Shown here: positions 2 through 47,632 of the stretch, one piece after another
Layout of the letters: each line of letters opens with the position of its first letter
How positions within the stretch are numbered: the stretch's first letter is position 1
Assembly (NCBI GenBank): GCA_964557155.1
Contig: CAZKZC010000001.1
Span: forward strand, 1-57,443
DNA length: 57,443 nt
Source of the DNA: an uncultured Candidatus Saccharibacteria bacterium
GTDB taxonomy: Bacteria; Patescibacteriota; Minisyncoccia; Minisyncoccales; GWA2-38-27
Direction: 5' to 3'
Made by a program: the position numbers and the translations under genes
Notes under the pieces: generated by a model
The model's database searches: none
What the model saw: only the letters and a program-made list of their open reading frames with translations
Told to the model about the DNA's origin: nothing

Positions 2-1123
2 TATAGTGTTGGTAAAACAAAGTTAGCCATATTTAAAAAAGAGCCTGAAATTATTGAAGAGACCAACCAACTTGATTTCCAAGAACTTAAAGTCAACAAA
101 GACACGAACCTTAACCCTAAATATACTTTTGATTCTTTTGTTGTTGGTCCATTTAATGAATTACCTCATGCCGCCAGTATCGCTGTTTCCCAAAAACCCG
201 GTCTTGTCTATAATCCTCTTTTTATTTATGGAGGCGTTGGTCTGGGTAAAACTCATTTACTTCAAGCCATTGGAAATGAAATCAGCAAAACCCTTAAAAA
301 GAAAAAGATTGTATATATATCCTCTGAAAAATTCGCCTCGGAAGTTGTTTCAGCAATCAGGAATCACACGATGGAAGCATTTAAGGAAAAGTATCGATCT
401 ATGGATGTTTTAATTTTAGATGATATTCAATTCTTAGCTGGAAAAGAAAAAACTCAAGAGGAGTTCTTCCATGTTTTCAATGTCCTTTATGAAAACAATA
501 AACAAATTATACTTTCTTCAGATAGACCACCCAAAGCCATTAATTCTTTAGCTGAAAGATTGAGATCTCGTTTTGAGGGTGGAATGATTGCTGATGTTAG
601 CTCTCCAGACCTAGAAACAAGAATGGCTATTCTAAAAACAAAAGCCCAAGAGAAGAACGCTGACTTTCCTGATGAGGTTTATCAATATATTGCTTTCTCT
701 ATTCAGAAAAACATTAGAGAGTTAGAGGGAGCTTTAAATCGTTTGATTGTTCATCAGAAAATAAGTAATCAGAAAGTTGATCTTGAATTAACAAAAACCT
801 TATTCAAAAGCTTGCTTTCTTCTCCCAATAGAATTATAACGCCCAAGAAGATAGTTCAATGCGTTGTTGAGTTTTATGACCTTAAGGAGAGAGATTTGTT
901 GACATCTTCTAGAAAGAAAGAAATTGTTAAACCAAGACAGATAGCAATGTATTTATTAAGGGAAGAATTAAAAAGCTCTTTTCCTTTTATTGGTAGAAAG
1001 TTTAATGGAAAAGATCACACAACAGCCATCCACTCTTACAAGAAAATATGTCGATGTGTCCAGACAGATAAAAGATTAGAAGAAGAAATAGAGTTAATAA
1101 AAGAGAGGATACACACTAGTTAA
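2..1123 (+). CDS. dnaA: Chromosomal replication initiator DnaA, 5' end cut by window edge
   Basis: Frame +2 is open from nt 2; the listed ORF 371..1123 is only its last Met-initiated part. Translation gives NPKYTFDSFVVGPFN, Walker A GGVGLGKTHLL, LILDDIQFL and a C-terminal DNA-binding helix (KPRQIAMYLLRE, DHTTAIHSYKKI). Confidence 0.95.
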   Translation, partial: YSVGKTKLAIFKKEPEIIEETNQLDFQELKVNKDTNLNPKYTFDSFVVGPFNELPHAASIAVSQKPGLVYNPLFIYGGVGLGKTHLLQAIGNEISKTLKKKKIVYISSEKFASEVVSAIRNHTMEAFKEKYRSMDVLILDDIQFLAGKEKTQEEFFHVFNVLYENNKQIILSSDRPPKAINSLAERLRSRFEGGMIADVSSPDLETRMAILKTKAQEKNADFPDEVYQYIAFSIQKNIRELEGALNRLIVHQKISNQKVDLELTKTLFKSLLSSPNRIITPKKIVQCVVEFYDLKERDLLTSSRKKEIVKPRQIAMYLLREELKSSFPFIGRKFNGKDHTTAIHSYKKICRCVQTDKRLEEEIELIKERIHTS

Positions 1124-3128: not shown

Positions 3129-3348
3129 AAACCTGAGAATCAAGTTCTAAATTTGCTAAAATAGATGGTTGAGGAGCCAAATCAAAATCTGTTAGATCTT
3201 CATTTTCTAATTGAAGAGCAATAGCTTCTTTTAGATTAACAATAAGTTCATCAAGAGTTTTTGCTTGAGTAACAACCGGTAAATCAACAGATTCACCAAT
3301 ATAATATTTATCTCCTTTATATATACGGACTTGAATAATCTTTTTCAT
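3121..3348 (-). CDS. hicB: HicB-family antitoxin (UPF0150-like)
   Basis: 75-aa acidic protein (YYIGESVDLPVVTQAKTLDELIVNLKEAIALQLE) immediately upstream of, and overlapping, hicA. Confidence 0.75.
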   Translation of the reverse strand: MKKIIQVRIYKGDKYYIGESVDLPVVTQAKTLDELIVNLKEAIALQLENEDLTDFDLAPQPSILANLELDSQVYA

Positions 3349-8596: not shown

Positions 8597-11357
8597 TTGA
8601 ACTATTGGTAATATTTTGATTAATATTTACTATTTCCCCTATATTAACACGAATATCATCCATTGGGTATGGGTTCCCTCCTGAAGGTGGGACACTTTCA
8701 TACCCGGGATAAAGACCTGACAGATCAAGATCAAAATCAAAAGATGGTGTTTGAAATCCAGGAAGGTCAAATCTCTTTTGTTTGCTATAGCTTAAGTCGC
8801 CTAAAGGGATAGATGGAAGCTGGTAATTTATAGGATTAGTTAGTGGAATTTTCTTTAAATTTTCTGGCCAGGGGATATCTATTCTGTTAGCTATTTTGGC
8901 TAGTTCAGCATTCACAGTATCCATAGGAATGTTAATTTTATCTAGAAGAGCATAAGCATCTGGTATTTTAAACATACCATTTTCTACAACTGTTCGTGAT
9001 AAACTTTCAGCTATAGCCTCTTCTACTTTTCTCTTAACATTATCTAGTTGTTCATGAATAGATTTTTTAATTAGGTCTTCAAGTATTTTAGCGGCTTTAT
9101 CAAGCTGAGACTGAATTTGTGACTGAACGGTATTATCAAGAACGCCTTGAATTTGACTAATTCTGCTAGCCACATTTTGCTTCAAAGAACTATTAACATT
9201 TTTACAAAATTTATCAACATTTATATATTTATTATCGCACAAATCGGGTATTTCTGGAAATCTTGGCCAGAAAAAGTGATAATCGGAGAAACCAATATCT
9301 AATGGGATGCCGGAAATTCCTCCACTAACACATCCATTGGGGATAGAAACCAACGAAGAAACTAATCCTAGAAGCATATTTTCTATACTGATGTCTATGC
9401 CTGTAAAATTCAAAATAACTTCTGGTTGTGGAAGGGATATTTCAGGTATTTTCATATCCAAACTAAGCAAATCGGTTAAGTCAATTTCAGGCATTGGAAT
9501 AGGGATAGACGGAAATTTAATATCATTCATTTTTATGGGTAGTGGATCAAGCTGAGGACCATCTGGAATGGCGGGCATATCAGCATAAATAGTTGGAATA
9601 TCAATATCAGGAATTCTTAAAGATGGGTATTGAAAATCTACTTTCATTGAAGAAAGATCTCTTTGACAGCTATTTAGATTGCAGGGTTTTAAATCGGGAA
9701 GAATTAAATCTTCAAAAATCAGACTCGGAAGGCGAACCCTTAGAAAGGGCATAAAGTTAAAAGAAGGTAGATTGATGTCAGGAATTATTGTGTCTGGAAG
9801 TTCTATTTTTGGGAATAAGGTTGAGTTAATAGAAGGCAAAGAAGGGCAATCTAACCGAATACTATTTTGGGAATGATTAGAAACTGTTTGCGAAGCACAA
9901 GAGGCCGATGTTCCTTGGTATGTTTGAGCTCCAGGATTTTCAAATGTTCTATTAAATAAAGGAAGAAACTTGCACGATTCCGGAATGTTCATTTCCCCAG
10001 CCTTTTTTAATTCAGAGCATTTGTTTACTAAGGTGTTGAGATTGCAAGTTGGTGGTGTTGTTTCTCCTTCTGATCTAAATAACTCCTGACATTTTGCGTT
10101 AACATTAGTTATTTCATAGCATATTTCAGGAGGACGAGCACAATTGGTTCCTGTGCAAGTGGAATGTCTTTGTCGTAAAATTTGGCATTGATCAATGATT
10201 GTAAGATGAACAGCATCTTCATTAAAACATTGTTCGTATCTTTCTTGGACAGGGTTGTTATTAATATCTGTTAAGCCGGGCAATTCTTGGCATCTATCAG
10301 ACAACCAAGATAATGTTTGTAAAAACCATTCCAAGTCAATATACTGATTGTTTCCAGGGGCATTTTCCTTTGTGCATTGATAAGAACTGACATCTAATAA
10401 TTGGGTGCAAGAAAAGCTAGCCGGAGGAATCCCCGGAATATCTAGATAGGGAGGGTGAAAAACAATCGGATCTAAAGAGATGTCTGATAATCTGTCTGTT
10501 GGAATATCAGGAAAGGTGATATTGATATCTTGCAGATCAATATCAAAATCGCCTAAATTGGCAGTGTCTGACATCTGAATGCTATCTGGTAAATTTAATC
10601 CAACTTCGTCAATTGATATTCTTCCTAAGTCCAAATCACCTAAACGAACCCCTATTTCAAAAGCCATAGTTATTGGTTTTTGCCCTCCGCCACTTCCAAA
10701 AACGCAAGCATTAATTACGGGGATGGTATTGGTGTTGCACTGAGCTTGACAATGGTTTTTAGCTGAATAAGCCGAATTGTCCAATATATCAATATTTTTT
10801 GAAGCTGAATCAACAACATTTTCGCTAGAAGAAATTATATTGTTTAAATTAGATTCTAGTAATATTGCCTGGTCTTTATCCATTCTTTCTAGTTCTTCAG
10901 CTAAGCCAGTATCCATTTCTGTTTGAAGTAATTCTTTTAAAGAATCTATTTGCTGTGTTTTGCTTTTAATTTTTAATTTGGTTTTTTCTAAATCTTCCTT
11001 ATTATTACAGGTTTCACCGAAGACACCGACATTTCCATCTCTTATACATTGAGATATAGCATTGGCACAATTACATTGGGATGTTTGATTACTTAATTCT
11101 TCGTTAAAAAATTCTAGGTCTTGAGTAGTTTGATTTAATTCGCTAATAATAAATTTTAATCTATTGGGATAGTGAGGGTAATATTCTAGCCATTGGGCAA
11201 AAGCATCCGAACTAGTGCCTGATTTTTCTAGCAATGGAACAAGGATATTAATTAAAACCGCTAGAATTAAAACTCCTGCTATAATATATCTCTTTTTTTG
11301 ATTAAATAGTTTTATCATTTTAATAATCGCTTGTTTCACAATCGTATAATTCTCCAA
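8571..11357 (-). CDS. 928-aa N-terminally anchored Cys-rich protein with many short [LIF]P[DES][IL] motifs
   Basis: One N-terminal helix (YIIAGVLILAVLINILV), coiled-coil stretches, numerous Cys (by-eye estimate, over 30) and repeated motifs such as LPDTIIPDINLPSF, IPDIDIPTIYADMPAIPDGP and FPSIPIPMPEIDL. An alternative start at 11318 (MIKLFNQKK) leaves a 1-nt gap after the upstream stop. Confidence 0.8.
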   Translation of the reverse strand: MENYTIVKQAIIKMIKLFNQKKRYIIAGVLILAVLINILVPLLEKSGTSSDAFAQWLEYYPHYPNRLKFIISELNQTTQDLEFFNEELSNQTSQCNCANAISQCIRDGNVGVFGETCNNKEDLEKTKLKIKSKTQQIDSLKELLQTEMDTGLAEELERMDKDQAILLESNLNNIISSSENVVDSASKNIDILDNSAYSAKNHCQAQCNTNTIPVINACVFGSGGGQKPITMAFEIGVRLGDLDLGRISIDEVGLNLPDSIQMSDTANLGDFDIDLQDINITFPDIPTDRLSDISLDPIVFHPPYLDIPGIPPASFSCTQLLDVSSYQCTKENAPGNNQYIDLEWFLQTLSWLSDRCQELPGLTDINNNPVQERYEQCFNEDAVHLTIIDQCQILRQRHSTCTGTNCARPPEICYEITNVNAKCQELFRSEGETTPPTCNLNTLVNKCSELKKAGEMNIPESCKFLPLFNRTFENPGAQTYQGTSASCASQTVSNHSQNSIRLDCPSLPSINSTLFPKIELPDTIIPDINLPSFNFMPFLRVRLPSLIFEDLILPDLKPCNLNSCQRDLSSMKVDFQYPSLRIPDIDIPTIYADMPAIPDGPQLDPLPIKMNDIKFPSIPIPMPEIDLTDLLSLDMKIPEISLPQPEVILNFTGIDISIENMLLGLVSSLVSIPNGCVSGGISGIPLDIGFSDYHFFWPRFPEIPDLCDNKYINVDKFCKNVNSSLKQNVASRISQIQGVLDNTVQSQIQSQLDKAAKILEDLIKKSIHEQLDNVKRKVEEAIAESLSRTVVENGMFKIPDAYALLDKINIPMDTVNAELAKIANRIDIPWPENLKKIPLTNPINYQLPSIPLGDLSYSKQKRFDLPGFQTPSFDFDLDLSGLYPGYESVPPSGGNPYPMDDIRVNIGEIVNINQNITNSSNEILNILY

Positions 11358-13653
11358 TATCTATATGGAGGTGAGTTATTTTATCTAAGACATATGCTTC
11401 GGGAGCACATTTTTTAGCCGTGTTTATTATTTCATCTATATATTTTTTCTGAAGCTCAGAAGACATATCAAAGTCCACAGCATAAGATTCTTCTGTATCT
11501 CGACAAAAGGTGCCTCCATAATGAGCCGAAACTCTCATTTTGTTTTGTTCTATTCCATAGGTGTGAGAGCACTCTTCCTGATTTTTAGGGCTGATGCCCC
11601 ATTCACATGTTCCGTTATATAGTTTTTCATCAGAAATAGAAGATATTAATCCTATTATTTCCTCTGTTTCTTCTTCTGCTTCTTGATATTTGTCTAGCCC
11701 TTGACGCATACAGGAAAGAAGCTGTTTGAGTGGTTTGGAAGCGTCATTGTCATACTGGTTGTAATTTCGGACACCACTAGTGCAATCAAATCCTTTGGGA
11801 CAGCCGTCTTCTGAGGGTAGTATAGAATGTTCTTTAAGGGGAACGATATACAGAGGGTTGGAATCAGATGAGATTGGCAACGGAGGAGTATTTGCCGGAG
11901 AGCAACAATAAACATCTCTTGGATTGCAACTAGTCATAACTGTTCCGCTAGGACCATAATTACCCTTGGCACTTTCACAGCTTAATAGAGTAAATTCTGG
12001 ATTATTAATACTAGGATCAAAGCAAAGGCGGACAGCGGTATCAAGGTTGTGAAGATTATAGGGGTTTTTGGGCTCTTCTGCGTGGTATAGTACCTTTGGA
12101 AATATCTTCTTTATTTCTTCAATAACTCCAGTATCAATTTCAAGAATTTTATCTTCTGTCTCTTTAATTTCTTCTGATTTTTTGGTGATTTCTTCTACGG
12201 GGCAGGCTTCTCCGTTGCATCCTTGAACGGATTGAAGACATTTTGATTTGCAGAAAACAGCCATTGGGCCACATGGAATTATAGTACAGCATCTATACCA
12301 TGGATTAGGTATGCAAGCACAAGAAGGTTCGCAATAAGTCCGATTGCATTGCGACACAAGCTCGGTCATCTCCTGAACTTGTTGAGCCATTTTTTCAGTT
12401 AAGCGAGATAATTCCTCTAATTTGAAAATAGCAATAATTGCCAATTCTCTAAGATTGTCCATTGTTTCTCCTGTTGGTATTCTAGTGTGGCAACTAATCA
12501 ACTGAACTTCATATGGATCAGCTGTCATCTCTGGGAGAACGGGTTCTTCAGAAAGCTCCTTTATTTTCTGGGGGATATATGGAGCGTCATAAATAGTTCC
12601 TCCCACGGAGCAATAAAAAGTCAAGGCTTCATCTCCCGATTCTTCATAGCCGGATATTTTAATAACTTGATTTCCTAATGCCTCAAAATCTTTTTTAGCC
12701 AATAGAAGATCATTAAGTGTCATAAATTCTTGATTTTGGGTTCGACAAGAAATAACTTCTCCTTCTATTTCTTGAAACTTCCCCAACTCTTTTCTCAATA
12801 ATTCTTTATGCTCAGAAATTTTCTCTTTATACTTTGAAAGGGTTTTAATTTTCCCTTTGTCTATTTCTAGAACCTTTTCTATTCTTTCTCTGGCTGTTGG
12901 GTTGTCATCATCATTCTCGCAAGGATCTCCCGAACAGCCGATAGGCATAGAGCCCGTTTCGGGTTTTGTGCAAAGAGCTTTGGTGTTTTCGCATCGGCAT
13001 TCATCGGTGATCGTTTTTAGGTATTTGTTTAAATCAGAAATTCTGTTAAGCTTATCGTTTTCTAAATTAGAATCGTCTACATCTATTTCTTGTTTGAGAA
13101 AACCTTCAAATTCCGTGATAAGAGTTTCTAATTCTTCTGTTCTTTTTTTCTCCCAAACACTGCCGTCTCTCAATGCTTTTTTTAGTGGCAATTCGGCCAC
13201 AATCCATGTAAGAACTTCTCTGTCTGGAGCAGTATAGGTCTTGATGTCGTCTAGATCAATCGGAGTTAATGGACCAAAATCAAAAATTAATAATTGGGGG
13301 TTAATATTAACCAAGATTAAATATGAAGAAAAAAGAATAATTATTCCCAGAGCAGCACCGGTTAGCTGATCTTTAGCCGCTTTCAATTTAGATGGATCGG
13401 CTCCTGACATTATATATAGAACACCTCCATAAACCAAAGAACCGAAAGCTAAAAGACCTGAAATAGCAATAGCAAAGTTGAATATATATTTTACATAAGA
13501 AGGCAATCCATCTTGAACTGTTTGTGGCGCCTCGCCCATAATGCTTGGATAGTCAACCTCCAAATCTTGGGCTAAGACGAGAGAATAGATAGAAACAGAA
13601 AACAAAAAAACCGTAAAAGAAATTAAGAAAAGTTTTTTAGTTTTCCACAGCAT
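11320..13653 (-). CDS. 777-aa protein: signal peptide + TrbC/VirB2-like pilin module + Cys-rich stalk + C-terminal LAS/M15-like peptidase motifs
   Basis: N-terminus MLWKTKKLFLISFTVFLFSVSIYSLVLAQ. Pilin module GLPSYVKYIFNFAIAISGLLAFGSLVYGGVLYIMSGADPSKLKAAKDQLTGAALGIIILFSSYLILVNINPQL. Cys clusters (SQCNRTYCEPSCACIPNPWYRCCTIIPCGP). C-terminal SAHYGG...AVDFD and THLHIDIG. Confidence 0.85.
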   Translation of the reverse strand: MLWKTKKLFLISFTVFLFSVSIYSLVLAQDLEVDYPSIMGEAPQTVQDGLPSYVKYIFNFAIAISGLLAFGSLVYGGVLYIMSGADPSKLKAAKDQLTGAALGIIILFSSYLILVNINPQLLIFDFGPLTPIDLDDIKTYTAPDREVLTWIVAELPLKKALRDGSVWEKKRTEELETLITEFEGFLKQEIDVDDSNLENDKLNRISDLNKYLKTITDECRCENTKALCTKPETGSMPIGCSGDPCENDDDNPTARERIEKVLEIDKGKIKTLSKYKEKISEHKELLRKELGKFQEIEGEVISCRTQNQEFMTLNDLLLAKKDFEALGNQVIKISGYEESGDEALTFYCSVGGTIYDAPYIPQKIKELSEEPVLPEMTADPYEVQLISCHTRIPTGETMDNLRELAIIAIFKLEELSRLTEKMAQQVQEMTELVSQCNRTYCEPSCACIPNPWYRCCTIIPCGPMAVFCKSKCLQSVQGCNGEACPVEEITKKSEEIKETEDKILEIDTGVIEEIKKIFPKVLYHAEEPKNPYNLHNLDTAVRLCFDPSINNPEFTLLSCESAKGNYGPSGTVMTSCNPRDVYCCSPANTPPLPISSDSNPLYIVPLKEHSILPSEDGCPKGFDCTSGVRNYNQYDNDASKPLKQLLSCMRQGLDKYQEAEEETEEIIGLISSISDEKLYNGTCEWGISPKNQEECSHTYGIEQNKMRVSAHYGGTFCRDTEESYAVDFDMSSELQKKYIDEIINTAKKCAPEAYVLDKITHLHIDIGELYDCETSDY

Positions 13654-13700
13654 TGAATAATTATACCATCACCACTTGTCTCGTGCAACACTGAAATTAA

Positions 13701-13773
13701 ATTTAGCCAGTCCTCCACAGATAGAGTTTCGGCGCGTTGAGTTGGCTTAATCCTCTTGCTTAAAAGCAAGGAA
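13701..13773 (-). pseudogene. Displaced duplicate of the rsmA 3' coding end
   Basis: 73 nt identical to 14115-14187 except for one base, extendable to 77 nt with two differences. It encodes ...SLLLSKRIKPTQRAETLSVEDWLNL but has no upstream gene body. Confidence 0.85.
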
Positions 13774-13833
13774 AGTCTTTTTGAAATTGCTTTATTGTGT
13801 ATTTCATATATGTTAAAATATAATTGTGAGAAT

Positions 13834-13904
13834 GGGCGGGTAGTGAAACGGCATCACAAGTAACTTATACCTATTTATTGTGGGTTCGAATCCCATCCCG
13901 TCCA
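13834..13904 (+). tRNA. tRNA with anticodon UAU (Ile, AUA-reading) by cloverleaf reading
   Basis: Acceptor GGGCGGG/CCCGTCC (one G-U), D arm GTGA-AACGGCA-TCAC, anticodon arm AGTAA-CTTATAC-CTATT (A31-C39 mismatch), T arm GTGGG-TTCGAAT-CCCAT, discriminator A, no encoded CCA. Confidence 0.65.
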
Positions 13905-13961
13905 CACTCACCTTTGACTTTTGCACTATTGACAAAGTTTCTTGTATGGTATAATAAGGGT

Positions 13962-14071
13962 AGTAGGTATAAGTTCGATGCTTTCGAACTCACAAAATAT
14001 ATAACATTTAAAGTTCTTCTTTGTGTTATATGTTGGTTGGCCATTAGCCCCTTCGGGGGCTTTTGGTTTTT
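13962..14071 (+). ncRNA. Candidate ~110-nt orphan structured transcript
   Basis: Promoter TTGACA (13929-13934) and extended -10 TGgTATAAT (13947-13955). Hairpins agttcga-tgctt-tcgaact and atataaca-N16-tgttatat. Terminator gcccc-ttcg-ggggc plus T run (14047-14071). No ORF longer than 7 codons. Confidence 0.3.
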
Positions 14072-14090
14072 GTCAGAAAAACTACCGAAG

Positions 14091-14867
14091 TCAGAGCCCG
14101 CCTTTTTTTGTTAGATTTAGCCAGTTCTCCACAGATAGAGTTTCGGCGCGTTGAGTTGGCTTAATCCTCTTGCTTAAAAGCAAGGAACCGAGTTCCTTTT
14201 TGTCTATATCTAATTTCTTTGATAAATTATTGATAAGTTGTTTTCTTGGTTGAGAGAATCCGGCTTTAACAATTTTGAAAAACTTATCGGGATTGATGTC
14301 GTGTTTCTTCTTAGGAGTTATTTGAATAATAGCACTATCAACTTTTGGAACGGGCTTGAAAGATCTTTTAGATATATATGAAAGAACTTTTGCTTCTGCA
14401 TAAAACTGGACAGAAACAGCTAAGATGCTCATTCTGGGTGGTTTGGCACATATTCTTTGAGCAACCTCTTTTTGAACTATTAAAGTCATTTCTTTTGGAG
14501 GATTCTCTATTTCTAAAAACTTTCTAATAACAGGCGCTGTTATATAGAAAGGCAGGTTCGCTACTATTTTGTATTCATGATTCTTGATTCCTAATTCATG
14601 ATTCTTTAATATATCTCCGTGTATAATCTTTATGTTTTCATAATTCTTAAATTCCTGCTCCAAGAATTTGACTAATCGCTCATCTTTTTCCACAGCAATA
14701 ACCTTTTTAACTCTTTTAACTAATTCTTTCGTCAAGGCCCCTTTGCCTGGTCCAATCTCTAAGACAATATCTGTCTTAAGGAGCTTAGCTCCATTAATAA
14801 CATTAGAGATAGCCCTTTTGTTAATTAAGAAATTTTGGCCGAAATGTTTTATTGGTTTTATTTGCAT
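14091..14867 (-). CDS. rsmA: 16S rRNA (adenine1518/1519-N6)-dimethyltransferase
   Basis: FGQNFLINK, SAM motif EIGPGKGALT, ANLPFYIT; 258 aa. Confidence 0.93.
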   Translation of the reverse strand: MQIKPIKHFGQNFLINKRAISNVINGAKLLKTDIVLEIGPGKGALTKELVKRVKKVIAVEKDERLVKFLEQEFKNYENIKIIHGDILKNHELGIKNHEYKIVANLPFYITAPVIRKFLEIENPPKEMTLIVQKEVAQRICAKPPRMSILAVSVQFYAEAKVLSYISKRSFKPVPKVDSAIIQITPKKKHDINPDKFFKIVKAGFSQPRKQLINNLSKKLDIDKKELGSLLLSKRIKPTQRAETLSVENWLNLTKKGGL

Positions 14868-14885
14868 TATTCAATAATAACAGAT

Positions 14886-14904
14886 AAAAGTGACTCGGTC
14901 ACTT
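14886..14904. repeat. Palindrome AAAAGTGACTCGGTCACTT, second copy
   Basis: Lies in the divergent rsmA / LysM-M23 intergenic region, 14 nt upstream of the -35 TTGACT (14918-14923). Confidence 0.8.
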
Positions 14905-14953
14905 GTGGAAAAGGGGGTTGACTGGATATTTTCGAAAAGGTAGTATAAATAAA

Positions 14954-15976
14954 ATGAGTGATAAGATAAGTTCTTATTTAAGTAAATCATTAATCGTTTT
15001 AGCCGTTTTAATCTTCGGCTTCTTTATTTTCAGCTCAAATTCGGTGTTAAGATCTCTTGAAGATTTTTCTCTTTTAGCTTCAGCTGTAGATTCGGGTCAG
15101 GAATTATTTGTCGCAGGATCTAGTAATATTGCTAGAGAGTCCCCTAATATGAATTTTGTTCAAAATAATAGCTTAGTTGCCGTCGCTCCTCCAATGACGA
15201 TTGATGTTAATACTTTGGGAAGCATGATCGGTGGTATTGAAGAAGATGATGGTACTCGGAAAGAAATTCTTGAATATATTGTTGAGCCAGATGACACTCT
15301 TTCAACAATTGCCGACAAGTTTGATATTTCTTTAAGTACAATTTTAATAGCTAATGATCTCGGGTCTAAGTCAACTATCAAACCAGGTCAAAAACTTATT
15401 ATTCTTCCAGTAACGGGTGTTATTTATCATGTTAAAAATGGAGATACATTGGGTGATATTGCTAAGACATATAAAGGAAAAACAACGGAAATAATTACTG
15501 TTAATAATCTTTCTGGCGAGGGTAACATATTTGTCGGAGATATTTTAGTTATTCCTAATGGGAAAATACAGGTTTCTGGGTCAAGTGCTTACACTGCTAA
15601 TATCCCAGTTGGCTCAAGTTATTTTATTGCTCCTTTAGCCAAATATACAATTACCCAAGGACTTCATTGGTATAATGCTATTGATTTTGCTGCTCCTTGC
15701 GGAACGCCAATATATGCTGCCGCTGCTGGAGTAATTCAGAGAGTGGAATATGGATGGAATGGGGGGGCCGGAAATTATCTTAGAATTTTACATCCCAACG
15801 GTGTCGTTACAATGTATGGACATGTTCAGAAGAGTTTAGTTGTTCCAGGACAAAATGTTTCTCAAGGAGAAAGAATTGCTTTAGTCGGCGGAAAACCAGG
15901 AACAACTGGTGCTGGAATATCAACTGGATGTCATGTTCATTTTGATGTCCGTGGAGCTCGCAACCCCTTTCAATAA
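14954..15976 (+). CDS. LysM-repeat M23 peptidoglycan metalloendopeptidase
   Basis: N-terminal anchor helix. Two LysM repeats (YIVEPDDTLSTIADKF; YHVKNGDTLGDIAKTY). M23 motifs HWYNAIDF and GCHVHFDV. The ATG at 14954 lies 7 nt after a TAGTAT -10 box. The listed ORF starts at a TTG at 14903. Confidence 0.88.
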   Translation: MSDKISSYLSKSLIVLAVLIFGFFIFSSNSVLRSLEDFSLLASAVDSGQELFVAGSSNIARESPNMNFVQNNSLVAVAPPMTIDVNTLGSMIGGIEEDDGTRKEILEYIVEPDDTLSTIADKFDISLSTILIANDLGSKSTIKPGQKLIILPVTGVIYHVKNGDTLGDIAKTYKGKTTEIITVNNLSGEGNIFVGDILVIPNGKIQVSGSSAYTANIPVGSSYFIAPLAKYTITQGLHWYNAIDFAAPCGTPIYAAAAGVIQRVEYGWNGGAGNYLRILHPNGVVTMYGHVQKSLVVPGQNVSQGERIALVGGKPGTTGAGISTGCHVHFDVRGARNPFQ

Positions 15977-15979
15977 TAT

Positions 15980-16468
15980 ATGAAAAAAGCTTTATTCTTA
16001 TTTTTAGTCAGTATGCTTTTCTTTCCGGCTTTCGCCATGGCCAAACCTTTAGTTCCTTGCAGTTTGACTGGTGATGGCGATCTGCCAGCTTGTACGTTTT
16101 GTCATCTTTTTGTAATGTTTGGGAATATTACAGATTTTTTGTTTAAAGAAATAATTCCAATTTTAGCTGGTTTAATGATAGCCATTGGCGGAGTATATTA
16201 TCTTATTAGTCGGGGTGATCCTGAAAAACTGGCTAGTGCTAAGAAGATATTTTCGTCGGTTGCCATAGGCCTCTTGATAGCTTATAGTGCTTGGTTAATT
16301 GTTAATATGTTCTTTTTGGTAATTGGAATATCAGACTGGGAAGGTTTTCGTAATGGTTGGTGGAAAATTAATTGCCCTACGAGTCAAACACAATCATCAA
16401 CGCCTACCTATGATGAGATTGACAAATTAATGAAAGAAAACGAGAACATATTTAAAGTAAAACATTAA
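15980..16468 (+). CDS. Stand-alone TrbC/VirB2-like pilin-type protein (162 aa)
   Basis: Signal peptide MKKALFLFLVSMLFFPAFAMA, then two helices separated by SRGDPEKLASAKK (IIPILAGLMIAIGGVYYLI / IFSSVAIGLLIAYSAWLIVNMF). Same module as in the 474- and 777-aa proteins. Confidence 0.75.
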   Translation: MKKALFLFLVSMLFFPAFAMAKPLVPCSLTGDGDLPACTFCHLFVMFGNITDFLFKEIIPILAGLMIAIGGVYYLISRGDPEKLASAKKIFSSVAIGLLIAYSAWLIVNMFFLVIGISDWEGFRNGWWKINCPTSQTQSSTPTYDEIDKLMKENENIFKVKH

Positions 16469-16471
16469 AAT

Positions 16472-16544
16472 GCCCCTATAACTCAATTGGTAGAGTAACG
16501 GCCTCTTAAGCCGGTTGTTCCAGGTTCAAGTCCTGGTGGGGGCA
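16472..16544 (+). tRNA. tRNA-Lys (CUU)
   Basis: Acceptor GCCCCTA/TGGGGGC, anticodon loop CTCTTAA, T arm CCAGG-TTCAAGT-CCTGG; 73 nt, no CCA. Confidence 0.9.
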
Positions 16545-16597
16545 CAAATATATCAAAACATTATTTAGAGAATCAGGCTTGTTTTTTTTGGAGAGAT

Positions 16598-16882
16598 ATG
16601 ATATGCTTAAAAAACATGTTAAAGACAGAAGAAAAATTAAAGATAATTAAAGAGCATAAAATAAATGATGCTGATACTGGATCTGACGATGTTCAGATTG
16701 TTTTGCTTTCAGAAGAAATTAAAGAATTACTTTCTCACTTAAGGAAGCATCCTAAAGATCTTCATTCTAAAAAAGGTCTTTTAAAAATGGTTTCCCAAAG
16801 AAGAAAACTTTTAAAACATTTAAAAAAGGAAGACGAAAAAAGATATAATAAGATCGTTAAAGCCGTAGGGCTTAAACGATAG
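16598..16882 (+). CDS. rpsO: 30S ribosomal protein S15
   Basis: DTGSDDVQIVLLSEEI...HLRKHPKDLHSKKGLLKMVSQRRKLLKHLKK. The in-frame ATG at 16616 (MLKTEEK) gives the canonical ~88-aa length. Confidence 0.92.
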   Translation: MICLKNMLKTEEKLKIIKEHKINDADTGSDDVQIVLLSEEIKELLSHLRKHPKDLHSKKGLLKMVSQRRKLLKHLKKEDEKRYNKIVKAVGLKR

Positions 16883-16988
16883 AATCAAGAATTATGAATC
16901 AAGAATCAAGAATCAAGAATCAAGAATCAAGAATCATGAATTCGACGACGTCGTTCATAATTCATTATTCATAATTCATTATTCAAAT
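16883..16988 (+). repeat. Heptamer tandem arrays forming a long imperfect hairpin
   Basis: Nine 7-mers of AATCAAG type (16883-16945), a central palindrome cgacg-a-cgtcg, then five TTCATAA/TTCATTA 7-mers (16954-16988) that are partly complementary to the left arm. Confidence 0.85.
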
Positions 16989-16990
16989 TT

Positions 16991-17494
16991 ATGGTTATAA
17001 AACATATTGGACAACGCGTAGGAGTATTAATAGATGTTCAAAACCTATATCACTCAGCCAAAAATTTATATAACGCCAGAGTTAATTTCAAAGAGATTTT
17101 AAAAACATCAATAGACGAGAGAAGTTTAATCAGGGTTTTTGCTTATGTTATAAGCACAAAAACGGGAGAAGAAAAACCCTTTTTTGAAGCTCTAACAAGA
17201 CTAGGTATTGAAACAAGAGTTAAGGAATTACAGGAGTTTTATGGAGGAGCAAAGAAAGCTGATTGGGATGTTGGATTAGTTATAGATGCTATTAGAATCG
17301 CTCCTAGCGTTGATACATTGGTAATAGTTTCCGGAGACGGAGATTTTATTTCTTTAGTAGAATATTTAAAAAATCAAGGGAAAAGAGTAGAAGTAGTTGC
17401 TTTCGGAAAATCAGCCTCTTCTAAGTTAAGAGAAATAGCCGACGAGTTTATTGACTTGGGTTCAACTCCCAAAAAATATTTATTAAAAAAATGA
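16991..17494 (+). CDS. NYN-domain (LabA/DUF88-like) putative RNase
   Basis: VGVLIDVQNLYHSAK ... VIVSGDGDFISLVEYLKNQGKRVEVVAFG. Its stop overlaps the pnp start (ATGA). Confidence 0.75.
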   Translation: MVIKHIGQRVGVLIDVQNLYHSAKNLYNARVNFKEILKTSIDERSLIRVFAYVISTKTGEEKPFFEALTRLGIETRVKELQEFYGGAKKADWDVGLVIDAIRIAPSVDTLVIVSGDGDFISLVEYLKNQGKRVEVVAFGKSASSKLREIADEFIDLGSTPKKYLLKK

Positions 17495-19581
17495 GTAAAG
17501 AAAAATTTAATTTAAAACTAGACGGAAAAGATATTGAAATTGAAACTAATAGCTTAGCCGAACAAGCCAACGGAAGTGCTTTGGTTCGTTGCGGAGACAC
17601 AATGGTTTTAGCAACAGCTGTAATGGATAGACAAGATCGAGAAGATCGTGGGTTTTTTCCTTTGACAGTGGAATATCAAGAAAGATATTATGCTGCTGGA
17701 AAAATTGGTGGTGGGCGCTTCATGAAAAGAGAGGCCAGGCCTTCTGATGAAGCAACTTTAAACGCTAGGATAATAGATAGGTCTATTAGACCAAGATTTC
17801 CTAAAGAGTTGACTAAAGAGATTCAGGTAATTATAACCGTTTTATCTTGGGACGGGGAAAACGATCCAGATGTTTTGAGCTTAATAGCTGCCTCTACTGC
17901 CCTATCAATTTCTAACATACCATGGAATGGTCCTTTGGGGGCCATTAGAGTTTGTCGTAAAGACAACCAGCTTATTCTAAATCCTAGCTATGAAGAACGC
18001 AAAGAAAATGATATAGATATAATGTTTGTCGGACTTTATGAAAAAAAAGAGCTTGTTATTAATATGATCGAGGGTGGTTGTAAAGAGGTGGACGAAAAAT
18101 CAATAATGGATGCTTACGATTTCGGCGAAAAACATATTAAAAAACTGCTTGATTTTCAAAAAGAAATCCAAGATAAAATCGGAGAAGAAAAATATGTTTT
18201 AGAGCCAGCTAAAAAAGACATTGAATTAGAAAAAGAAATAAATGATTTTTTGGGAGACAAATACGAAAAAGCATTCTTTCAAAAAGATAAAGCAAAAAAA
18301 TCAAAAGATATTGAGAGTTTAACAAAAGAACTTGGTTCTTTTCTTGACGAAAAATATCTCGAAGATGATAAAAAGAAATATGCTTTCAACTTTTTAGACA
18401 AAGAAGGAGATAGATTGGTTCATGAAGGAGTGTTAAAAGAAAACAAAAGAGTTGATGGGAGAAGGTTAGACGAAGTTAGAAAGATTACTGCCGATGTGTC
18501 TATTCTTCCAAGAACTCACGGAACAGGATTATTCTCAAGAGGTTTAACTAAATCATTATCAATACTAACTTTAGGATCTCCTGGAGATCAACAGTTAATT
18601 GACGGAATGGAAATAAACGGAGATAAAAGGTTTATGCATCATTACAACTTCCCTCCTTATTCTGTTGGAGAAACTGGTTTTATGAGGGGTCCTGGAAGAA
18701 GAGAAATCGGTCACGGATTGTTAGCCGAAAAAGCATTGACGCCACTTATTCCTAGTTCAGAAGAATATCCTTATACTATTAGAATTGTATCTGAAATTCT
18801 TTCTTCAAACGGTTCTAGTTCTATGGCATCTACTTCTAGTTCTGCTTTAGCTTTGATGGATGCCGGAGTTCCAATTAAAAGATTAGTAACGGGAGTGGCT
18901 ATGGGGTTAATCAAAAATGATAAGGAGTATAAGATACTAACTGATATTCAGGGACCAGAAGATCATCACGGTGATATGGATTTTAAAGTAGCTGGAACGC
19001 GTGAAGGAATTACAGCTATTCAAATGGATGTAAAAATAGAAGGAATAACCAGAGCCATTATGGAAAAAACATTAAAGATGGCTGAAAAGGCACGTTATTC
19101 AATATTAGATGTTATGGAAAAAACCATTTCTAAGCCAGCTGAACCTTCTAAGTATGCACCTCGCATTATAACTATTACAATAAATCCAAGCAAAATTGGT
19201 GAAATAATAGGTCCTGGTGGAAAAGTTATTAACAAGATTATTGATGAGACAGGAGCTCAAATAGATATTGAGGATTCAGGTCAAGTTTTTGTTACTTCTG
19301 ATAATAAAGAATCAGCTGAGAAAGCCGTTAATTGGATTAAGAGTATTGTTGAAGAAGCTGAAATAGGAAAAATATATGAAGGAGAAGTAAAAAAAATTAT
19401 GGAGTTTGGTGCTTTTGTTGAAGTTCTTCCCGGTAAAGATGGTCTAATTCATATTTCTAAATTATCTGATAAAAGAGTAGAAAAAGTTGAAGACATCGTT
19501 AAGGAAGGAGAGATTGTCTCAGTCAAAGTTCTCTCCATAGACGCCCAAGGAAAAATAAGCCTTCAACTTGTTAAAAAATAA
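17491..19581 (+). CDS. pnp: Polyribonucleotide nucleotidyltransferase (PNPase)
   Basis: Two RNase PH domains, KH (IGEIIGPGGKVINKI) and S1 (GEVKKIMEFGAFVEVLPGKDGLIHISKL); 696 aa. Confidence 0.95.
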   Translation: MSKEKFNLKLDGKDIEIETNSLAEQANGSALVRCGDTMVLATAVMDRQDREDRGFFPLTVEYQERYYAAGKIGGGRFMKREARPSDEATLNARIIDRSIRPRFPKELTKEIQVIITVLSWDGENDPDVLSLIAASTALSISNIPWNGPLGAIRVCRKDNQLILNPSYEERKENDIDIMFVGLYEKKELVINMIEGGCKEVDEKSIMDAYDFGEKHIKKLLDFQKEIQDKIGEEKYVLEPAKKDIELEKEINDFLGDKYEKAFFQKDKAKKSKDIESLTKELGSFLDEKYLEDDKKKYAFNFLDKEGDRLVHEGVLKENKRVDGRRLDEVRKITADVSILPRTHGTGLFSRGLTKSLSILTLGSPGDQQLIDGMEINGDKRFMHHYNFPPYSVGETGFMRGPGRREIGHGLLAEKALTPLIPSSEEYPYTIRIVSEILSSNGSSSMASTSSSALALMDAGVPIKRLVTGVAMGLIKNDKEYKILTDIQGPEDHHGDMDFKVAGTREGITAIQMDVKIEGITRAIMEKTLKMAEKARYSILDVMEKTISKPAEPSKYAPRIITITINPSKIGEIIGPGGKVINKIIDETGAQIDIEDSGQVFVTSDNKESAEKAVNWIKSIVEEAEIGKIYEGEVKKIMEFGAFVEVLPGKDGLIHISKLSDKRVEKVEDIVKEGEIVSVKVLSIDAQGKISLQLVKK

Positions 19582-19592
19582 AATCGCAAAAA

Positions 19593-19622
19593 CTGCCCGA
19601 GGCCCGTCCTCGGGCAGTTTTT
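19593..19622 (+). terminator. Intrinsic terminator after pnp
   Basis: ctgcccgagg-cccgt-cctcgggcag followed by a T run. Confidence 0.8.
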
Positions 19623-19666
19623 GATTCTCCTTGATTTTACGCTCAATTGATTTATTTTTTGAAACC

Positions 19667-20410
19667 ATGAAAGACTATAAAATTTTAGCGTTAGATGAAA
19701 CAGGCAAAGCTAGCTTTGATCATCCGTCTAAGAACTTTGTTTTATCGGGTTTTATTTTACCAGAAAAGTTAAAACCGAAACTGGATAAATCAATTCGTAA
19801 ATTAAAGAAAAAATATTTTGCTGACGAGGAAATAGTATTTCATTGTAGAGATATGTTACGGAAGAAAGGTTCTTTTGCGATCTTGCGTACAGATTCAGCC
19901 AAAGAATTAAAATTCTGGTCGGAATTTATTTCCATTCTGAACGCAAAATTTTTATCATTAGCTTTTGTTATTGCTGATAAAAATAAAGCTAAAAAAATAG
20001 GATGGAATGATATCGCTATATTAAGACGATCTTATAGTAAAATGTTAGAAGAGTTTACAAAAAAACACTTAATTAAAAATAATGGGAAAATTGTAGCAGA
20101 ATCAGATCCTTATCAAGATAGGTACTTAATAGAAGCACATAATAGATTGCAATCAATAGGTGTACCATCGGAAGGCATTACGGGTTCGGACTATAGAAAT
20201 AAAATTACATCTTTAAGCTTGGTGAATAAATTAAATTTAGATGTAGATGTTCAAATGGCAGATAGTTTAGCGATAATGGCAGATATGGTTTATGGAATGA
20301 AAATTGGCATAAAGAAAAAACCTACGAGAGTACAAGTCATAATGAAGAGACTCATAAATAGAAAAATGACTGACAAAGATAATCCAGGAATTTTTGAAAT
20401 ACTCGTTTAA
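19667..20410 (+). CDS. DUF3800-like protein
   Basis: The start MKDYKILALDETG and the C-terminal DVQMADSLA resemble the DUF3800 DESG...ADxxA pattern. The listed ORF starts earlier, at 19631. Confidence 0.6.
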   Translation: MKDYKILALDETGKASFDHPSKNFVLSGFILPEKLKPKLDKSIRKLKKKYFADEEIVFHCRDMLRKKGSFAILRTDSAKELKFWSEFISILNAKFLSLAFVIADKNKAKKIGWNDIAILRRSYSKMLEEFTKKHLIKNNGKIVAESDPYQDRYLIEAHNRLQSIGVPSEGITGSDYRNKITSLSLVNKLNLDVDVQMADSLAIMADMVYGMKIGIKKKPTRVQVIMKRLINRKMTDKDNPGIFEILV

Positions 20411-20512
20411 ATCTAAACAAAAAAGCCGACCATGGCTAACCGCACATATATCGACTCTTCATATTTCTATTATAGCCGTTTTCAACAAAGGATGTCAACC
20501 CTCCCCAATGCT

Positions 20513-20596
20513 GTTAAGGAAGGAGAGATTGTTTCAGTAAAAGTTCTCTCTATAGATGCCCAAGGAAAAATAAGCCTTCAACTTGTTAAAAAATAA
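20513..20596 (+). pseudogene. Displaced duplicate of the pnp 3' coding end
   Basis: 86-nt repeat including the stop. Its 4 differences from 19498-19583 are all third-position synonymous (gtc/gtt, gtc/gta, tcc/tct, gac/gat). It encodes ...VKEGEIVSVKVLSIDAQGKISLQLVKK. Confidence 0.85.
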
Positions 20597-20626
20597 AAAC
20601 TTGACAAAAACCTAATAATATTTCAG

Positions 20627-20650
20627 AACTCGCCCTGGGCGAGTTTTGTT
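20627..20650 (+). terminator. Intrinsic terminator after the pnp remnant
   Basis: aactcgcc-ctg-ggcgagtt followed by a T run. Confidence 0.7.
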
Positions 20651-20847
20651 TTATGTTCGTCGTCGGAGGTCCGTACCTCGGATAGCAATCCGAGCTCGGA
20701 CATCTACGCAACTCTTCCGTCGTTTCTCAAGGAGCAATTTTAGTGTTTTAGATGATTTAATAGTAATAGGAGGCTAACCTACAATGGTTCTGGATGTTCT
20801 AGAATAAGTACATAAGTTGTACATATTATGAAACATGAATAAACATT

Positions 20848-20873
20848 AAATGTGCGAAGCAAATGTGCAAAGC
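20848..20873. repeat. Tandem 13-mers AAATGTGCGAAGC / AAATGTGCAAAGC
   Basis: Two adjacent copies about 100 nt upstream of ORF 20975, followed by a duplicated TGTTATAAT. Confidence 0.7.
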
Positions 20874-20974
20874 TAAGCTTTGAACATTTTATTTTTTTAT
20901 TTGCTATTTATTTTATTTTTTTTATTATGTTATAATGTTATAATAGATTAAATCAACTTTTAATTTTTAAATTT

Positions 20975-23569: not shown

Positions 23570-23643
23570 TGGAGCCAGTGGGATTTGAACCCACGACCTC
23601 TCCGAAGCCATCGGAGCACTCTACCAGCCTGAGCTATGGCCCC
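23570..23643 (-). tRNA. tRNA-Ala (GGC)
   Basis: Reverse complement GGGGCCA...TGGCTCCA with G3-U70, anticodon loop ATGGCTT, T arm GTGGG-TTCAAAT-CCCAC. Confidence 0.88.
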
Positions 23644-47630: not shown

Positions 47631-47632
47631 TC

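Follow-up and report, generated by a model that had tools for sequence, protein, structure and literature searches.

How does a copy of the end of a housekeeping gene come to lie on the far side of a small insert when no integrase is at hand? Patescibacteria have very small genomes, and the ways in which they gain and lose genes are little understood. We address this question in a 57-kb stretch of DNA (57,443 nucleotides; hereafter the window) from W, a Nealsonbacteria-like patescibacterium, and compare it with the sister species A (GCA_018830125.1) and the outgroup species B (ERZ24794679 NODE_17049); a tree from seven genes has the form ((W,A),B). Three insertion hot spots lie within 6 kb: after rsmA, tRNA-Lys, and pnp. 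Their contents differ between the sister species and comprise an RNA cassette, a DUF3800 gene, toxin–antitoxin-type modules, Fic, and NUDIX; several of these inserts are flanked by 80–100-nt copies of the upstream gene end, and no recombinase was detected among them. We read the orphan gene-end copies as scars that recombination or repair, acting without an integrase, left at insertion hot spots directly downstream of conserved genes, an account to which we give somewhat less than even weight.

The orphan copy of the rsmA end

The gene rsmA/ksgA encodes a 258-aa 16S rRNA dimethyltransferase on the minus strand (14091–14867; translation and Pfam RrnaAD, 4.8e-59). A 77-nt direct repeat, identical at 75 of its 77 positions, occurs at 13697–13773 and 14111–14187; its 73-nt core (13701–13773 and 14115–14187) holds a single difference, as the first-pass annotation of this DNA had reported. 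The functional copy, R′ (14111–14187), lies in frame within the rsmA coding sequence. It had been taken for the in-frame end of the gene: the frame is right, and the very end is elsewhere, since the last six codons and the stop (TKKGGL*, ~14091–14110) lie past the repeat and are encoded by the insert. This new tail is read from the terminator region of the cargo itself, which supplies no restored gene end; of the 21 closest homologues, only that of A has the tail too. Two derived states are specific to R′: CTA, and AAC, which gives Asn where each of the 20 relatives inspected has Asp; the orphan has TTA and Asp.

The other copy is an orphan of the rsmA 3′ end (13697–13773). It is clean across the core (13701–13773) and has a ragged extension to ~13784, with a CAAAAAG match and 5 nt missing inside the perfect palindrome GGAACCGAGTTCC. 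As had been proposed, the orphan would read into a 777-aa gene with a T4SS-pilin-like domain (11320–13653, minus strand), which heads the large operon downstream of rsmA; the orphan lies 43 nt upstream of its start. The spacer between them (13654–13696, minus strand) shares homology with A and B in their rsmA tail and the region upstream of the operon, and carries a putative promoter on the minus strand, with promoter-like TTGCAC (13683–13688) and TATAAT (13660–13665). At one side the orphan adjoins the last cargo base that W has in common with A; at the other it runs into operon-upstream sequence common to A and B, so that native downstream sequence follows the distal copy. An empty W site, if one exists, would carry the rsmA body through the repeat straight into ...ATTTCAGTGTTGCAC.

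A second orphan copy at pnp

The same geometry had been noted at pnp; it recurs there, and also at an island beside tRNA-Lys in A. The pnp gene encodes a 696-aa polynucleotide phosphorylase (17491–19581, plus strand; Pfam RNase_PH, KH, and S1), and its 86-nt repeat (19498–19583 and 20513–20598; 82/86 identical) brackets a 929-bp insert. The functional copy, R1 (19498–19583), spans the final 27 codons of pnp with the stop and 2 further nt. At positions 21 and 27 it has derived synonymous changes that are specific to this copy; the orphan has GTT/GTA. The repeat does not adjoin the left edge of the cargo: between them lies a plus-strand segment (19584–19661) made of the terminator termA (hairpin 19587–19623) and a short left-end sequence. 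A has an identical termA, and B a variant of it at its empty pnp site; the short sequence after termA is one that W has in common with the different cargo of A. The pnp cargos of W and A thus both start after termA, not inside pnp.

The orphan copy, R2 (20513–20598), starts 14 nt after the right edge of the DUF3800-like unit described below, an edge defined from four other genomes. It is followed by a W-specific spacer (20599–20938, plus strand) with a second terminator, termB (20629–20652), and a GC-rich ~75-nt element (20655–20728), two copies of which also occur in the tRNA-Lys island of A. The functional copy is therefore followed by termA, as at the empty site of B, and the orphan by termB and 340 bp of other sequence. 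If the pnp orphan is the displaced native end, what followed pnp in the W ancestor must have differed from both relatives; an empty W site, if it exists, would join pnp directly to termB. All differences between the pnp copies are synonymous, which might seem to prove evolution of the orphan as coding sequence; this argument is weakened because at least two of the four changes lie in the functional copy, where only silent changes survive.

Contents of the two inserts

The rsmA cargo (13774–14110, plus strand) measures 337 bp between the 77-nt copies, or 341 bp if counted between the 73-nt cores, and it contains, in agreement with the first-pass annotation, a tRNA and a unit bounded by its own promoter and terminator. 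The tRNA (13834–13904, plus strand; ARAGORN, with 55.2 bits for Rfam tRNA) has the anticodon UAU and is called Ile. Its acceptor stem, read from the sequence, is GGGCGGG/CCCGUCC, which gives a G3:U70 pair, and position 73 is A. The predicted small-RNA unit (13929–14072, plus strand) is supported by its sequence, a terminator scan, and a fold z of −6.3: TTGACA (13929–13934) and the extended −10 TGgTATAAT (13947–13955) lead to a predicted start at ~13962, followed by three hairpins and an intrinsic terminator (14046–14061) with a T run. Twelve nucleotides of the small RNA are perfectly complementary to the anticodon arm of the tRNA. A tRNA(UAU) with the alanine-type G3:U70 pair and a small RNA complementary to its anticodon arm could constitute a self-regulating recoding or addiction module. 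The small-RNA unit belongs to no Rfam family. Rfam searches at E up to 10 for the rsmA cargo and up to 1 for the pnp cargo returned the tRNA alone, and on this basis we set aside, for both inserts, a group II intron and any other known RNA element.

By blastn, the rsmA cargo is 98% identical to A over 306 nt and absent from B. In the alignment, its core (~290 nt) has one mismatch between W and A; the ~45 nt adjoining rsmA have diverged and include an 11-nt indel. Neither the window nor any fetched locus has more than one copy of the cargo; in the collections searched it occurs at this locus only, its single metagenome match is the contig of A itself, and viral contigs and a phage collection hold no match. 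The near-identity of the core might be taken for recent horizontal transfer. Yet W, A, and B also differ very little in promoter-bearing spacers at other places, which weakens that argument, as constraint may suffice.

The pnp cargo is a DUF3800-like unit (19662–20498, plus strand): a 247-aa gene (19667–20410) and a conserved ~88-nt 3′ element. Its boundaries are drawn from DNA homology to copies in unrelated genomic contexts in Patescibacteria, where gene and element form a discrete unit at 83–87% DNA identity. In one such context (L100–L103), an 81-nt direct repeat lies on both sides; the repeat in L100 is 85% identical with compensatory hairpin changes and looks like two old homologous terminator modules. 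Two others (L098 and L099) have no flanking repeat. The protein has an RNase H-like fold, with RNase HII/HIII as its best structural matches, at weak scores (E ~1e-3, TM 0.4–0.5), and not transposases or integrases. PADLOC and PHROG gave no match to the gene, PDB gave no sequence match, viral contigs hold no relatives of the unit, and no convincing consensus structure was found for the 3′ element. DUF3800 genes associate with diverse unexplained structured RNAs (PMC5737381). Both cargos are small self-contained modules: a tRNA(UAU) and a small RNA with their own promoters and terminators in one case, a single DUF3800-like gene with its 3′ element in the other.

Relatives and the age of the duplications

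An insertion implies an empty site in relatives, and B provides it. Its RsmA ends in ...DWLKLALH*, and the large operon begins 27 bp downstream; at pnp, in B as in the loci L095 and L096, a terminator and then the next gene follow directly. B is empty at both loci, which marks both W cargos, by sequence comparison, as lineage-specific insertions. A is occupied at both in its own manner. At pnp it has a different cargo, a PIN toxin module. At rsmA it has the cargo, the left junction, and the new RsmA tail as in W, but only a 5-bp AATTA repeat and no orphan copy. Seen on the plus strand, W equals A plus ~84 nt placed exactly between ...AATTA and AAATTGC.... By parsimony, the rsmA cargo junction would be older than the W–A split.

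The copies themselves appear younger. Judged against A and B, the 77-nt repeat holds five derived substitutions present in both W copies, two in the functional copy only, and none in the orphan only; both pnp copies carry the W-specific ending LVKK. Since W-specific substitutions are present in both copies, their last common sequence is younger than the W–A split. All four polarisable differences, from both loci, are derived in the functional copy. Such a 4:0 pattern, which under equal rates has ~p = 0.06, hints weakly at copies taken from slightly different alleles and fits the local decay of a pseudocopy less well. Distances computed gene by gene give a mosaic picture of W, A, and B: pnp, NYN, and rsmA are star-like and LysM is strongly W+A, which suggests recombination among these lineages.

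Duplication sizes are similar throughout: 77–86 nt here, and 81 and 101–104 nt in other islands. The largest flanks the tRNA-Lys island of A and consists of the 3′ 68 nt of tRNA-Lys with its terminator. Microhomology at the junctions spans 0–5 nt, with nothing clear at most of them.

Repeats in metagenome assemblies carry a general risk of misassembly, which the first-pass annotation had raised. Both arrangements recur unchanged in six contigs, each assembled independently from a different sample (three from ENA and three from JGI, among them ERZ27248922 and JGI 3300028169), at 99.95% identity or more; the copies differ at 2 and 4 positions, their flanks are unique, and repeats of such length and identity are far beyond chance. 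Misassembly is thereby excluded, and an artefact or a chance repeat has a negligible share in our weighing. These six W assemblies are clonal; the collections hold no relative closer to W than A and no empty or alternative allele of the W lineage. A survey of pnp in the genome collection gave relatives at 68% identity or less, which were uninformative about the two sites but served as background for a geometry scan, which looked for a repeat copy at the 3′ end of an ORF with an orphan copy at least 300 nt away. Over ~1.47 Mb of related loci this one method found the rsmA pair, the pnp pair, and one weak case only.

Tests against known element classes

Two features recall integrative elements: direct repeats flank the cargos, one copy of each being the 3′ end of the gene (77 nt and 86 nt), and relatives have empty sites (B for rsmA; B, L095, and L096 for pnp). 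Native downstream sequence after the orphan, as expected of such elements, is present at rsmA, and at pnp the evidence from relatives speaks against it. The other occupied genome, A, has the 5-bp AATTA repeat in place of an att duplication. No ORF of at least 90 aa in the window, cargos included, has a recombinase or transposase Pfam domain, which upholds the earlier statement that no integrase is present, and none was found in the repeat-flanked tRNA-Lys island of A.

Insertion sequences and MITEs are rejected on the grounds of cargo ends without terminal inverted repeats, the single copy, and a duplication of 5 bp in A against 77–84 bp in W. A diversity-generating retroelement is rejected as well: the window has no RT domain, and the mismatches between copies (C/T, C/A, and A/G) are not adenine-specific. 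A phage origin finds no support in viral contigs, where the tRNA, the small-RNA patterns, and the DUF3800 unit are unmatched, or in the phage collection, where the cargo is unmatched.

How the orphan ends may have arisen

In the variant we favour, recombination in the W lineage would have taken place between a cargo-carrying allele and a closely related cargo-free allele. The incoming DNA would probably enter by the type IV pilus or competence-like apparatus encoded in the window, where type IV pilus or ComG-like genes are present (43388–52203: T2SSE/PilB, T2SSF/PilC, PilM, PilN, and prepilin-type genes; presence only); we know of no demonstration of natural transformation in these organisms. 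Pairing would run through the common sequence and halt at the cargo edge, where homology ends. Resolution could then take the Campbell-type route, with one crossover within the ~80-nt gene end, or that of homology-facilitated illegitimate recombination, in which the unpaired flap is joined illegitimately; either would leave the cargo between two copies of the ~80-nt anchor. The orphans lie at the cargo edge, which is where homology of occupied and empty alleles would end; the recombination route, the second allele, and the uptake route are inferred. Several points speak against this model: no empty or alternative W allele was found in the collections, duplication sizes are similar, whereas illegitimate joining should give arbitrary lengths, most junctions have no clear microhomology, and at pnp it needs a W ancestor with termB downstream, unlike the termA of A and B. 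We also considered a single imported 6.7-kb block (13774–20512), bounded by both cargos, as the source of both orphans; the evidence tips neither for nor against it. At rsmA the order of events could be the reverse, with the W state ancestral, the orphan lost from A by deletion, and the W copies homogenised by gene conversion.

The copies might instead have been made in place. At the AT-rich border of an older insertion, a break or a stalled fork would be repaired by a template switch: the free end would anneal at AATTA, the short repeat that the first insertion had left, copy ~84 nt of the nearby gene end, and rejoin, with neither foreign DNA nor a recombinase, and the pnp orphan would form by the same route. 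Much at rsmA is consistent with this: the W orphan extends the 5-bp repeat of A, the 5 nt lost within the palindrome are as error-prone copying across a hairpin predicts, the W-specific substitutions are in both copies, and the junction common to A makes the cargo, by parsimony, older than the duplication; the copy lengths (84 and 86 nt) are also similar. We nevertheless consider templated duplication somewhat unlikely. An orphan free of constraint should evolve no more slowly than the gene, and all four polarisable differences are in the functional copy; moreover, two independent ~85-nt events 5 kb apart, each at a cargo edge, would need a cause for the breaks, and the pnp junctions have no evident microhomology. 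The first-pass annotation had preferred classical site-specific integration, in which a tyrosine or serine integrase, acting in trans or since deleted, would have used an attP that held the gene 3′ end; the repeats would be attL and attR, the cargos decayed remnants, and the orphan of A would have been deleted later. At rsmA the order of gene, functional end, cargo, and orphan end is that of known integration sites, B supplies the empty site, the tRNA-Lys island of A has the geometry of a classical att site, and tRNA genes are common phage or island cargo; a microhomology-mediated deletion could even turn a W-like into an A-like state, one T off. The att-site reading is not supported by the comparison, and we judge it unlikely: no recombinase domain was detected in the cargos, the window, or the island of A, viral and phage collections hold no cargo homologue, the RsmA tail is improvised from the cargo terminator in place of a substitute gene end, and A has the identical junction with a 5-bp repeat only. 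At pnp the functional copy keeps the B-type terminator, with the W and A cargos beginning beyond termA, and W-specific substitutions in both copies would need gene conversion or a very recent event.

Two further proposals bring in the cargos themselves. The DUF3800-like protein and its 3′ element might act as a mobility or homing nuclease, whose breaks would be repaired from sister or foreign copies to give ~80-nt duplications, possibly in trans at rsmA, 5 kb away. The unit moves among unrelated contexts, one of them again with a flanking repeat; the RNase H-like superfamily includes DDE transposases and RuvC, and DUF3800 genes are linked to unexplained structured RNAs (PMC5737381). We consider this very unlikely, given that RNase HII/HIII head the structural matches, with weak scores, that two contexts are without flanking repeats and the L100 repeat resembles old terminator modules, and that the rsmA cargo has no protein gene and neither cargo has terminal inverted repeats. 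It is also doubtful, though a little less so, that the inserts are integrase-free mobile cassettes or, as a separate reading, that the tRNA(UAU) and small RNA serve jointly as a recoding or addiction module. In the cassette reading, host homologous recombination between ~80–100-nt direct repeats would excise modules as small circles, and the gene-end copy would serve as a homing arm to the same conserved gene end in related DNA-uptaking cells, possibly with help from the DUF3800 protein, with its RNase H-like fold, and from the conserved 3′ element.

Comparison with known systems

Prophage e14 and phage 21 integrate into the 3′ end of icd in E. coli, where the displaced pseudo-end is icdC. As in W, there is a housekeeping gene, an insert, and an orphan 3′ end, and the copies differ mainly at silent sites. 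These phages bring their own integrase gene, located beside att, and a proper replacement for the gene end, whereas in W we found no recombinase, and the rsmA tail is improvised; unlike in e14 and phage 21, the sister of W has the cargo without the orphan, and the outgroup terminator at pnp stays with the functional copy. Genomic islands at tRNA genes are likewise flanked by ~50–100-nt direct repeats of the 3′ part of the gene, and the tRNA-Lys island of A has identical geometry; W differs from them in its protein-coding targets and cargos of 0.34 and 0.93 kb, and no integrase was found in the W cargos or the island of A. A Campbell-type single crossover of circular DNA with a short homology arm, as with suicide plasmids, also yields arm, cargo, and arm as direct repeats of the length of the arm, and for it host homologous recombination suffices. 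For the W cargos, however, we know of no circular form or replicon, and the match to the relatives' native terminator after the functional pnp copy needs an extra assumption.

A parallel in recombination logic comes from Rhs, CdiA, and T6SS effectors, whose C-terminal displacement is attributed to homology-facilitated illegitimate recombination; for T6SS and Rhs loci, a proposal on the origin of orphan modules follows the logic of our favoured model (PMC5361080). In these systems, as proposed for W, entry is anchored by conserved upstream sequence, the old end lies downstream as an orphan with a stub, and no integrase is involved. They are polymorphic toxins, in which displacement swaps the toxin tip, whereas in W the genes are rsmA and pnp, the stub measures ~80 nt, and gene and cargo have no relation to each other.

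For annotators, orphan gene-end fragments are not proof of integrase-mediated islands. Acquisition by recombination only, if true, would give a concrete, testable picture of accessory-gene flux in Patescibacteria, and the cassette reading, if true, a general route by which recombinase-poor Patescibacteria circulate small modules. As a single case the locus is a modest curiosity; the tRNA with its complementary RNA and the DUF3800 unit may be richer leads.

Duplicated gene ends at rsmA and pnp

The 3' ends of rsmA and pnp are each present twice in the window: once within the gene itself (the functional copy) and once as a stray copy (the orphan), with a small inserted segment, or cargo, after the gene. 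The rsmA copies, at 13697-13773 and 14111-14187, span 77 nt with 2 differences and contain a 73-nt core with 1; the pnp copies, at 19498-19583 and 20513-20598, span 86 nt with four. Both pairs agree with the first-pass annotation. Both structures recur, at an identity of 99.95% or better, in six contigs, each from a different metagenome sample, which rules out misassembly. The geometry was sought across about 1.47 Mb of related loci as a copy at an ORF 3' end with an orphan at least 300 nt away; only the rsmA and pnp pairs and one weak case were recovered.

The right-hand rsmA copy is in frame inside the gene (14091-14867, minus strand; RrnaAD, 4.8e-59), as had been described, but it is not the very gene end: six further codons and a stop (TKKGGL*) follow beyond the repeat, within the inserted segment. 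The left-hand copy is indeed an orphan, lying 43 nt before the start of a 777-aa gene (11320-13653, minus strand). The 337 bp between the copies hold the anticipated cargo of two units, both on the strand opposite rsmA: a tRNA with anticodon UAU (13834-13904, plus strand) and a promoter- and terminator-bounded small-RNA unit (about 13929-14072, plus strand). At the protein level, the six-residue RsmA tail (14094-14110) is encoded by the cargo terminator, and the functional RsmA has Asn at 14129-14131, within an S-V/I-x-D-W motif that has Asp in all 20 relatives inspected; the orphan retains the ancestral Asp codon.

The two sites in related genomes

By the names of its homologues, the window belongs to Patescibacteria, near Candidatus Nealsonbacteria. 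A seven-gene tree places the organism of the window (W) with a sister species (A, GCA_018830125.1, represented by loci L008 and L093), and an outgroup (B, ERZ24794679 NODE_17049) branches outside them; three of the genes, pnp, NYN, and rsmA, come close to a star among the three species. The empty rsmA site that an insertion predicts is found in B, where the gene ends in ...DWLKLALH* and 27 bp separate it from the start of the large operon. Species A has the same cargo, the same left junction, and the same improvised tail as W; this tail is read from a terminator of the cargo, through its A-run and stem, and W and A are the only ones to have it in the set of 21 closest RsmA homologues inspected. 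The cargo of A has no orphan: its flanks are a 5-bp AATTA repeat only, and beyond it an in-frame, native-type tail (LKLLLH*) is restored. Viewed on the plus strand, W equals A plus about 84 nt placed exactly between ...AATTA and AAATTGC..., so that the W orphan extends the 5-bp repeat of A. Five nucleotides missing from the W orphan lie inside the palindrome GGAACCGAGTTCC. Two orders of events are possible: either the A-like state came first, or the W-like state did, in which case A later lost sequence by deletion and W underwent gene conversion.

In B and two further relatives (L095, L096), pnp is followed within 152-185 bp by a terminator and the next gene. In W, pnp is followed by one terminator (termA, adjoining the functional copy), a short left-end sequence, a unit with a DUF3800-like gene (19662-20498, plus strand), 14 nt, the orphan, a different terminator (termB), and 340 bp of W-specific sequence. 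In A, an identical termA precedes a different cargo comprising a 78-aa gene, a PIN-domain (VapC-like) gene, and a 68-aa gene (L093:7083-8135); it is flanked by a 5-bp ATTGA repeat and lacks any pnp repeat, and its first ~22 nt, the left-end sequence after termA, are common to the W cargo. The terminator of B's empty site thus stays beside the functional copy in W, and reading the pnp orphan as the displaced native end would require an ancestral W downstream region unlike that of A and B.

The age of the copies can be read from their substitutions. Across the 77 nt at rsmA, five positions derived relative to A and B are common to both W copies; the functional copy alone carries two changes (CTA, and AAC, which gives Asn versus Asp in every relative), the orphan alone none. 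The W-specific ending LVKK is likewise common to both pnp copies, and all four differences between these are at third codon positions, 2 clearly derived in the functional copy and 2 not polarisable. W-specific changes common to both copies indicate that the copies last shared sequence after the W-A split. Judged by these patterns, the orphans are not old, decaying pseudogenes, unless gene conversion kept the copies uniform.

Variable islands and the search for recombinases

Three neighbouring hot spots hold lineage-specific small modules, several of which have copies of the end of the upstream gene at their flanks. The third, at tRNA-Lys, carries in A a 2.7-kb island (L093:320-3130, equivalent to L008:1492-4301) bounded by an intact tRNA-Lys(CUU) on one side and by a partial 3' copy with a terminator hairpin on the other, the repeat being 101-104 nt long and 91-92% identical. 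Its genes encode a 94-aa protein, a NUDIX protein, a 78-aa protein, and a Fic protein, with an NTase/HEPN pair next; none is a recombinase. The same spot holds a Fic gene in B and nothing in W. A GC-rich repeat element of ~70-95 nt (CGTTCGTCGTCG.GAGGTCCGTACCTC...CTACGCAACTC...GTCGTTTCTC), with no match in Rfam, occurs in the W pnp island (20655-20728) and twice in the A tRNA-Lys island (L093:1567-1666 and 3133-3204), and is thus associated with variable islands.

The earlier statement that no integrase is present holds: a Pfam scan detected no integrase, resolvase, or transposase domain in any window ORF of at least 90 aa, about a dozen of which had no Pfam match at all. Neither viral contigs nor a phage collection contained a counterpart of the cargo sequences, and in one metagenome scan the small-RNA pattern was found only in A's own contig.

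Origin of the duplications

The first-pass annotation proposed site-specific integration at a gene 3' end. The insertion itself stands, given the empty site in B; the reading of the repeat as an attachment site is unsupported, because A, the sister species, shows this junction but lacks the repeat, W-specific substitutions are common to both copies, the gene end is improvised rather than restored, the order of the pnp terminators is the reverse of that predicted from relatives, and a recombinase is not detectable. The geometry of the tRNA-Lys island in A speaks for such integration, as does the narrow range of duplication sizes (77-104 nt), which illegitimate joining does not predict. Site-specific integration would call for an integrase that acted in trans or was later lost, and we consider it unlikely.

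We favour an integrase-independent origin. Our preferred variant, held tentatively and at somewhat under an even chance, is recombination between occupied and empty alleles of closely related W-lineage genomes. The two alleles would pair, pairing would stop at the cargo edge, and the event would be resolved in one of two ways: a Campbell-type crossover within the ~80-nt gene end, or illegitimate joining of the flap (homology-facilitated illegitimate recombination, HFIR). The same logic has been put forward for the orphan modules of T6SS and Rhs loci (PMC5361080). Allele recombination would explain why the orphans lie exactly at the cargo edges and why derived differences fall in the functional copies, not in the unconstrained orphans. 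The main rival, to which we give perhaps one chance in four, holds that a break was repaired in situ and that the repair switched template, with the 5-bp repeat as primer; it is favoured by the loss of 5 nt at a hairpin in the copy and by the cargo junction common to W and A. A role for the DUF3800-like protein in the duplications is a long shot. The feature is real and reproducible, and its most economical explanation is a scar that recombination or repair left at insertion hot spots; we class the W case with the known orphan gene-end stubs left by displacement-type recombination. The structure itself is modestly interesting, and some features of the cargo merit separate follow-up.

Features of the cargo

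In the acceptor stem of the tRNA(UAU), GGGCGGG/CCCGUCC, G3 and U70 form a wobble pair, and the discriminator base is A73; the tRNA-Ala(GGC) of the window shares the G3:U70 pair. This pair is the main AlaRS identity element and the hallmark of alanine tRNAs. The anticodon stem contains an A-C mismatch, and no similar isotype was found among about 100 tRNAs from related loci. The adjacent small RNA (13962-14072, plus strand; ~110 nt, start near 13962 predicted) has a promoter at 13929-13955 with an extended -10, an intrinsic terminator, a strong predicted fold, and no Rfam family. Of its first 14 nt, 12 (13964-13975) are perfectly complementary to the tRNA(UAU) anticodon arm (13862-13873, positions 29-40), a match reached by 10 of 20,000 shuffles; a second block (13983-14001) is complementary at 16 of 19 positions to the variable and T arms (13872-13890). 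The small RNA resembles an antisense derivative of the tRNA with its parts scrambled. Elsewhere, the position of tRNA-Ala(GGC) in W (23570-23643, minus strand) is occupied in A by a clearly different tRNA-like sequence (L093:~10860-10945); the neighbouring tRNA-Arg(UCG) and the flanks are conserved in A.

The DUF3800-like unit at pnp also occurs in L098, L099, L100-L103, and L029 (4585-5510). Homologues of its gene number 179; with few exceptions they come from Patescibacteria and are about 247 aa long, and they lie in unrelated genomic contexts. A weak DUF3800 match is present in 38 of 40 family members. The protein is modelled with an RNase H-like fold (pLDDT 91.7), best matching RNase HII/HIII (E about 1e-3, TM 0.4-0.5). 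A conserved 3' element of ~88 nt (AAAAAAGCCGACCATGGCTAACCGCACATATATCGAC...) travels with the gene and is kept in L029 even behind a diverged, split copy; it matched no known RNA motif and gave no convincing structure. Unexplained RNA motifs are known to associate with DUF3800 genes (PMC5737381). In L100-L103, the unit lies between the two copies of an 81-nt direct repeat.

Downstream of the pnp island, a repeat-rich, 732-aa SH3-domain gene (20975-23173, plus strand) is length-polymorphic in an otherwise clonal W population: it encodes 687 aa in L001, where about 135 nt are absent near 21124-21244. At the start of the window, dnaA (54-1123, plus strand) appears split; the match of ORF 371-1123 to the DnaA ATPase domain starts only at profile position 89, and the overlapping upstream ORF 54-413, in another frame, has no Pfam match. 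The next gene is dnaN (1297-2427), which indicates that the window starts near the replication origin.
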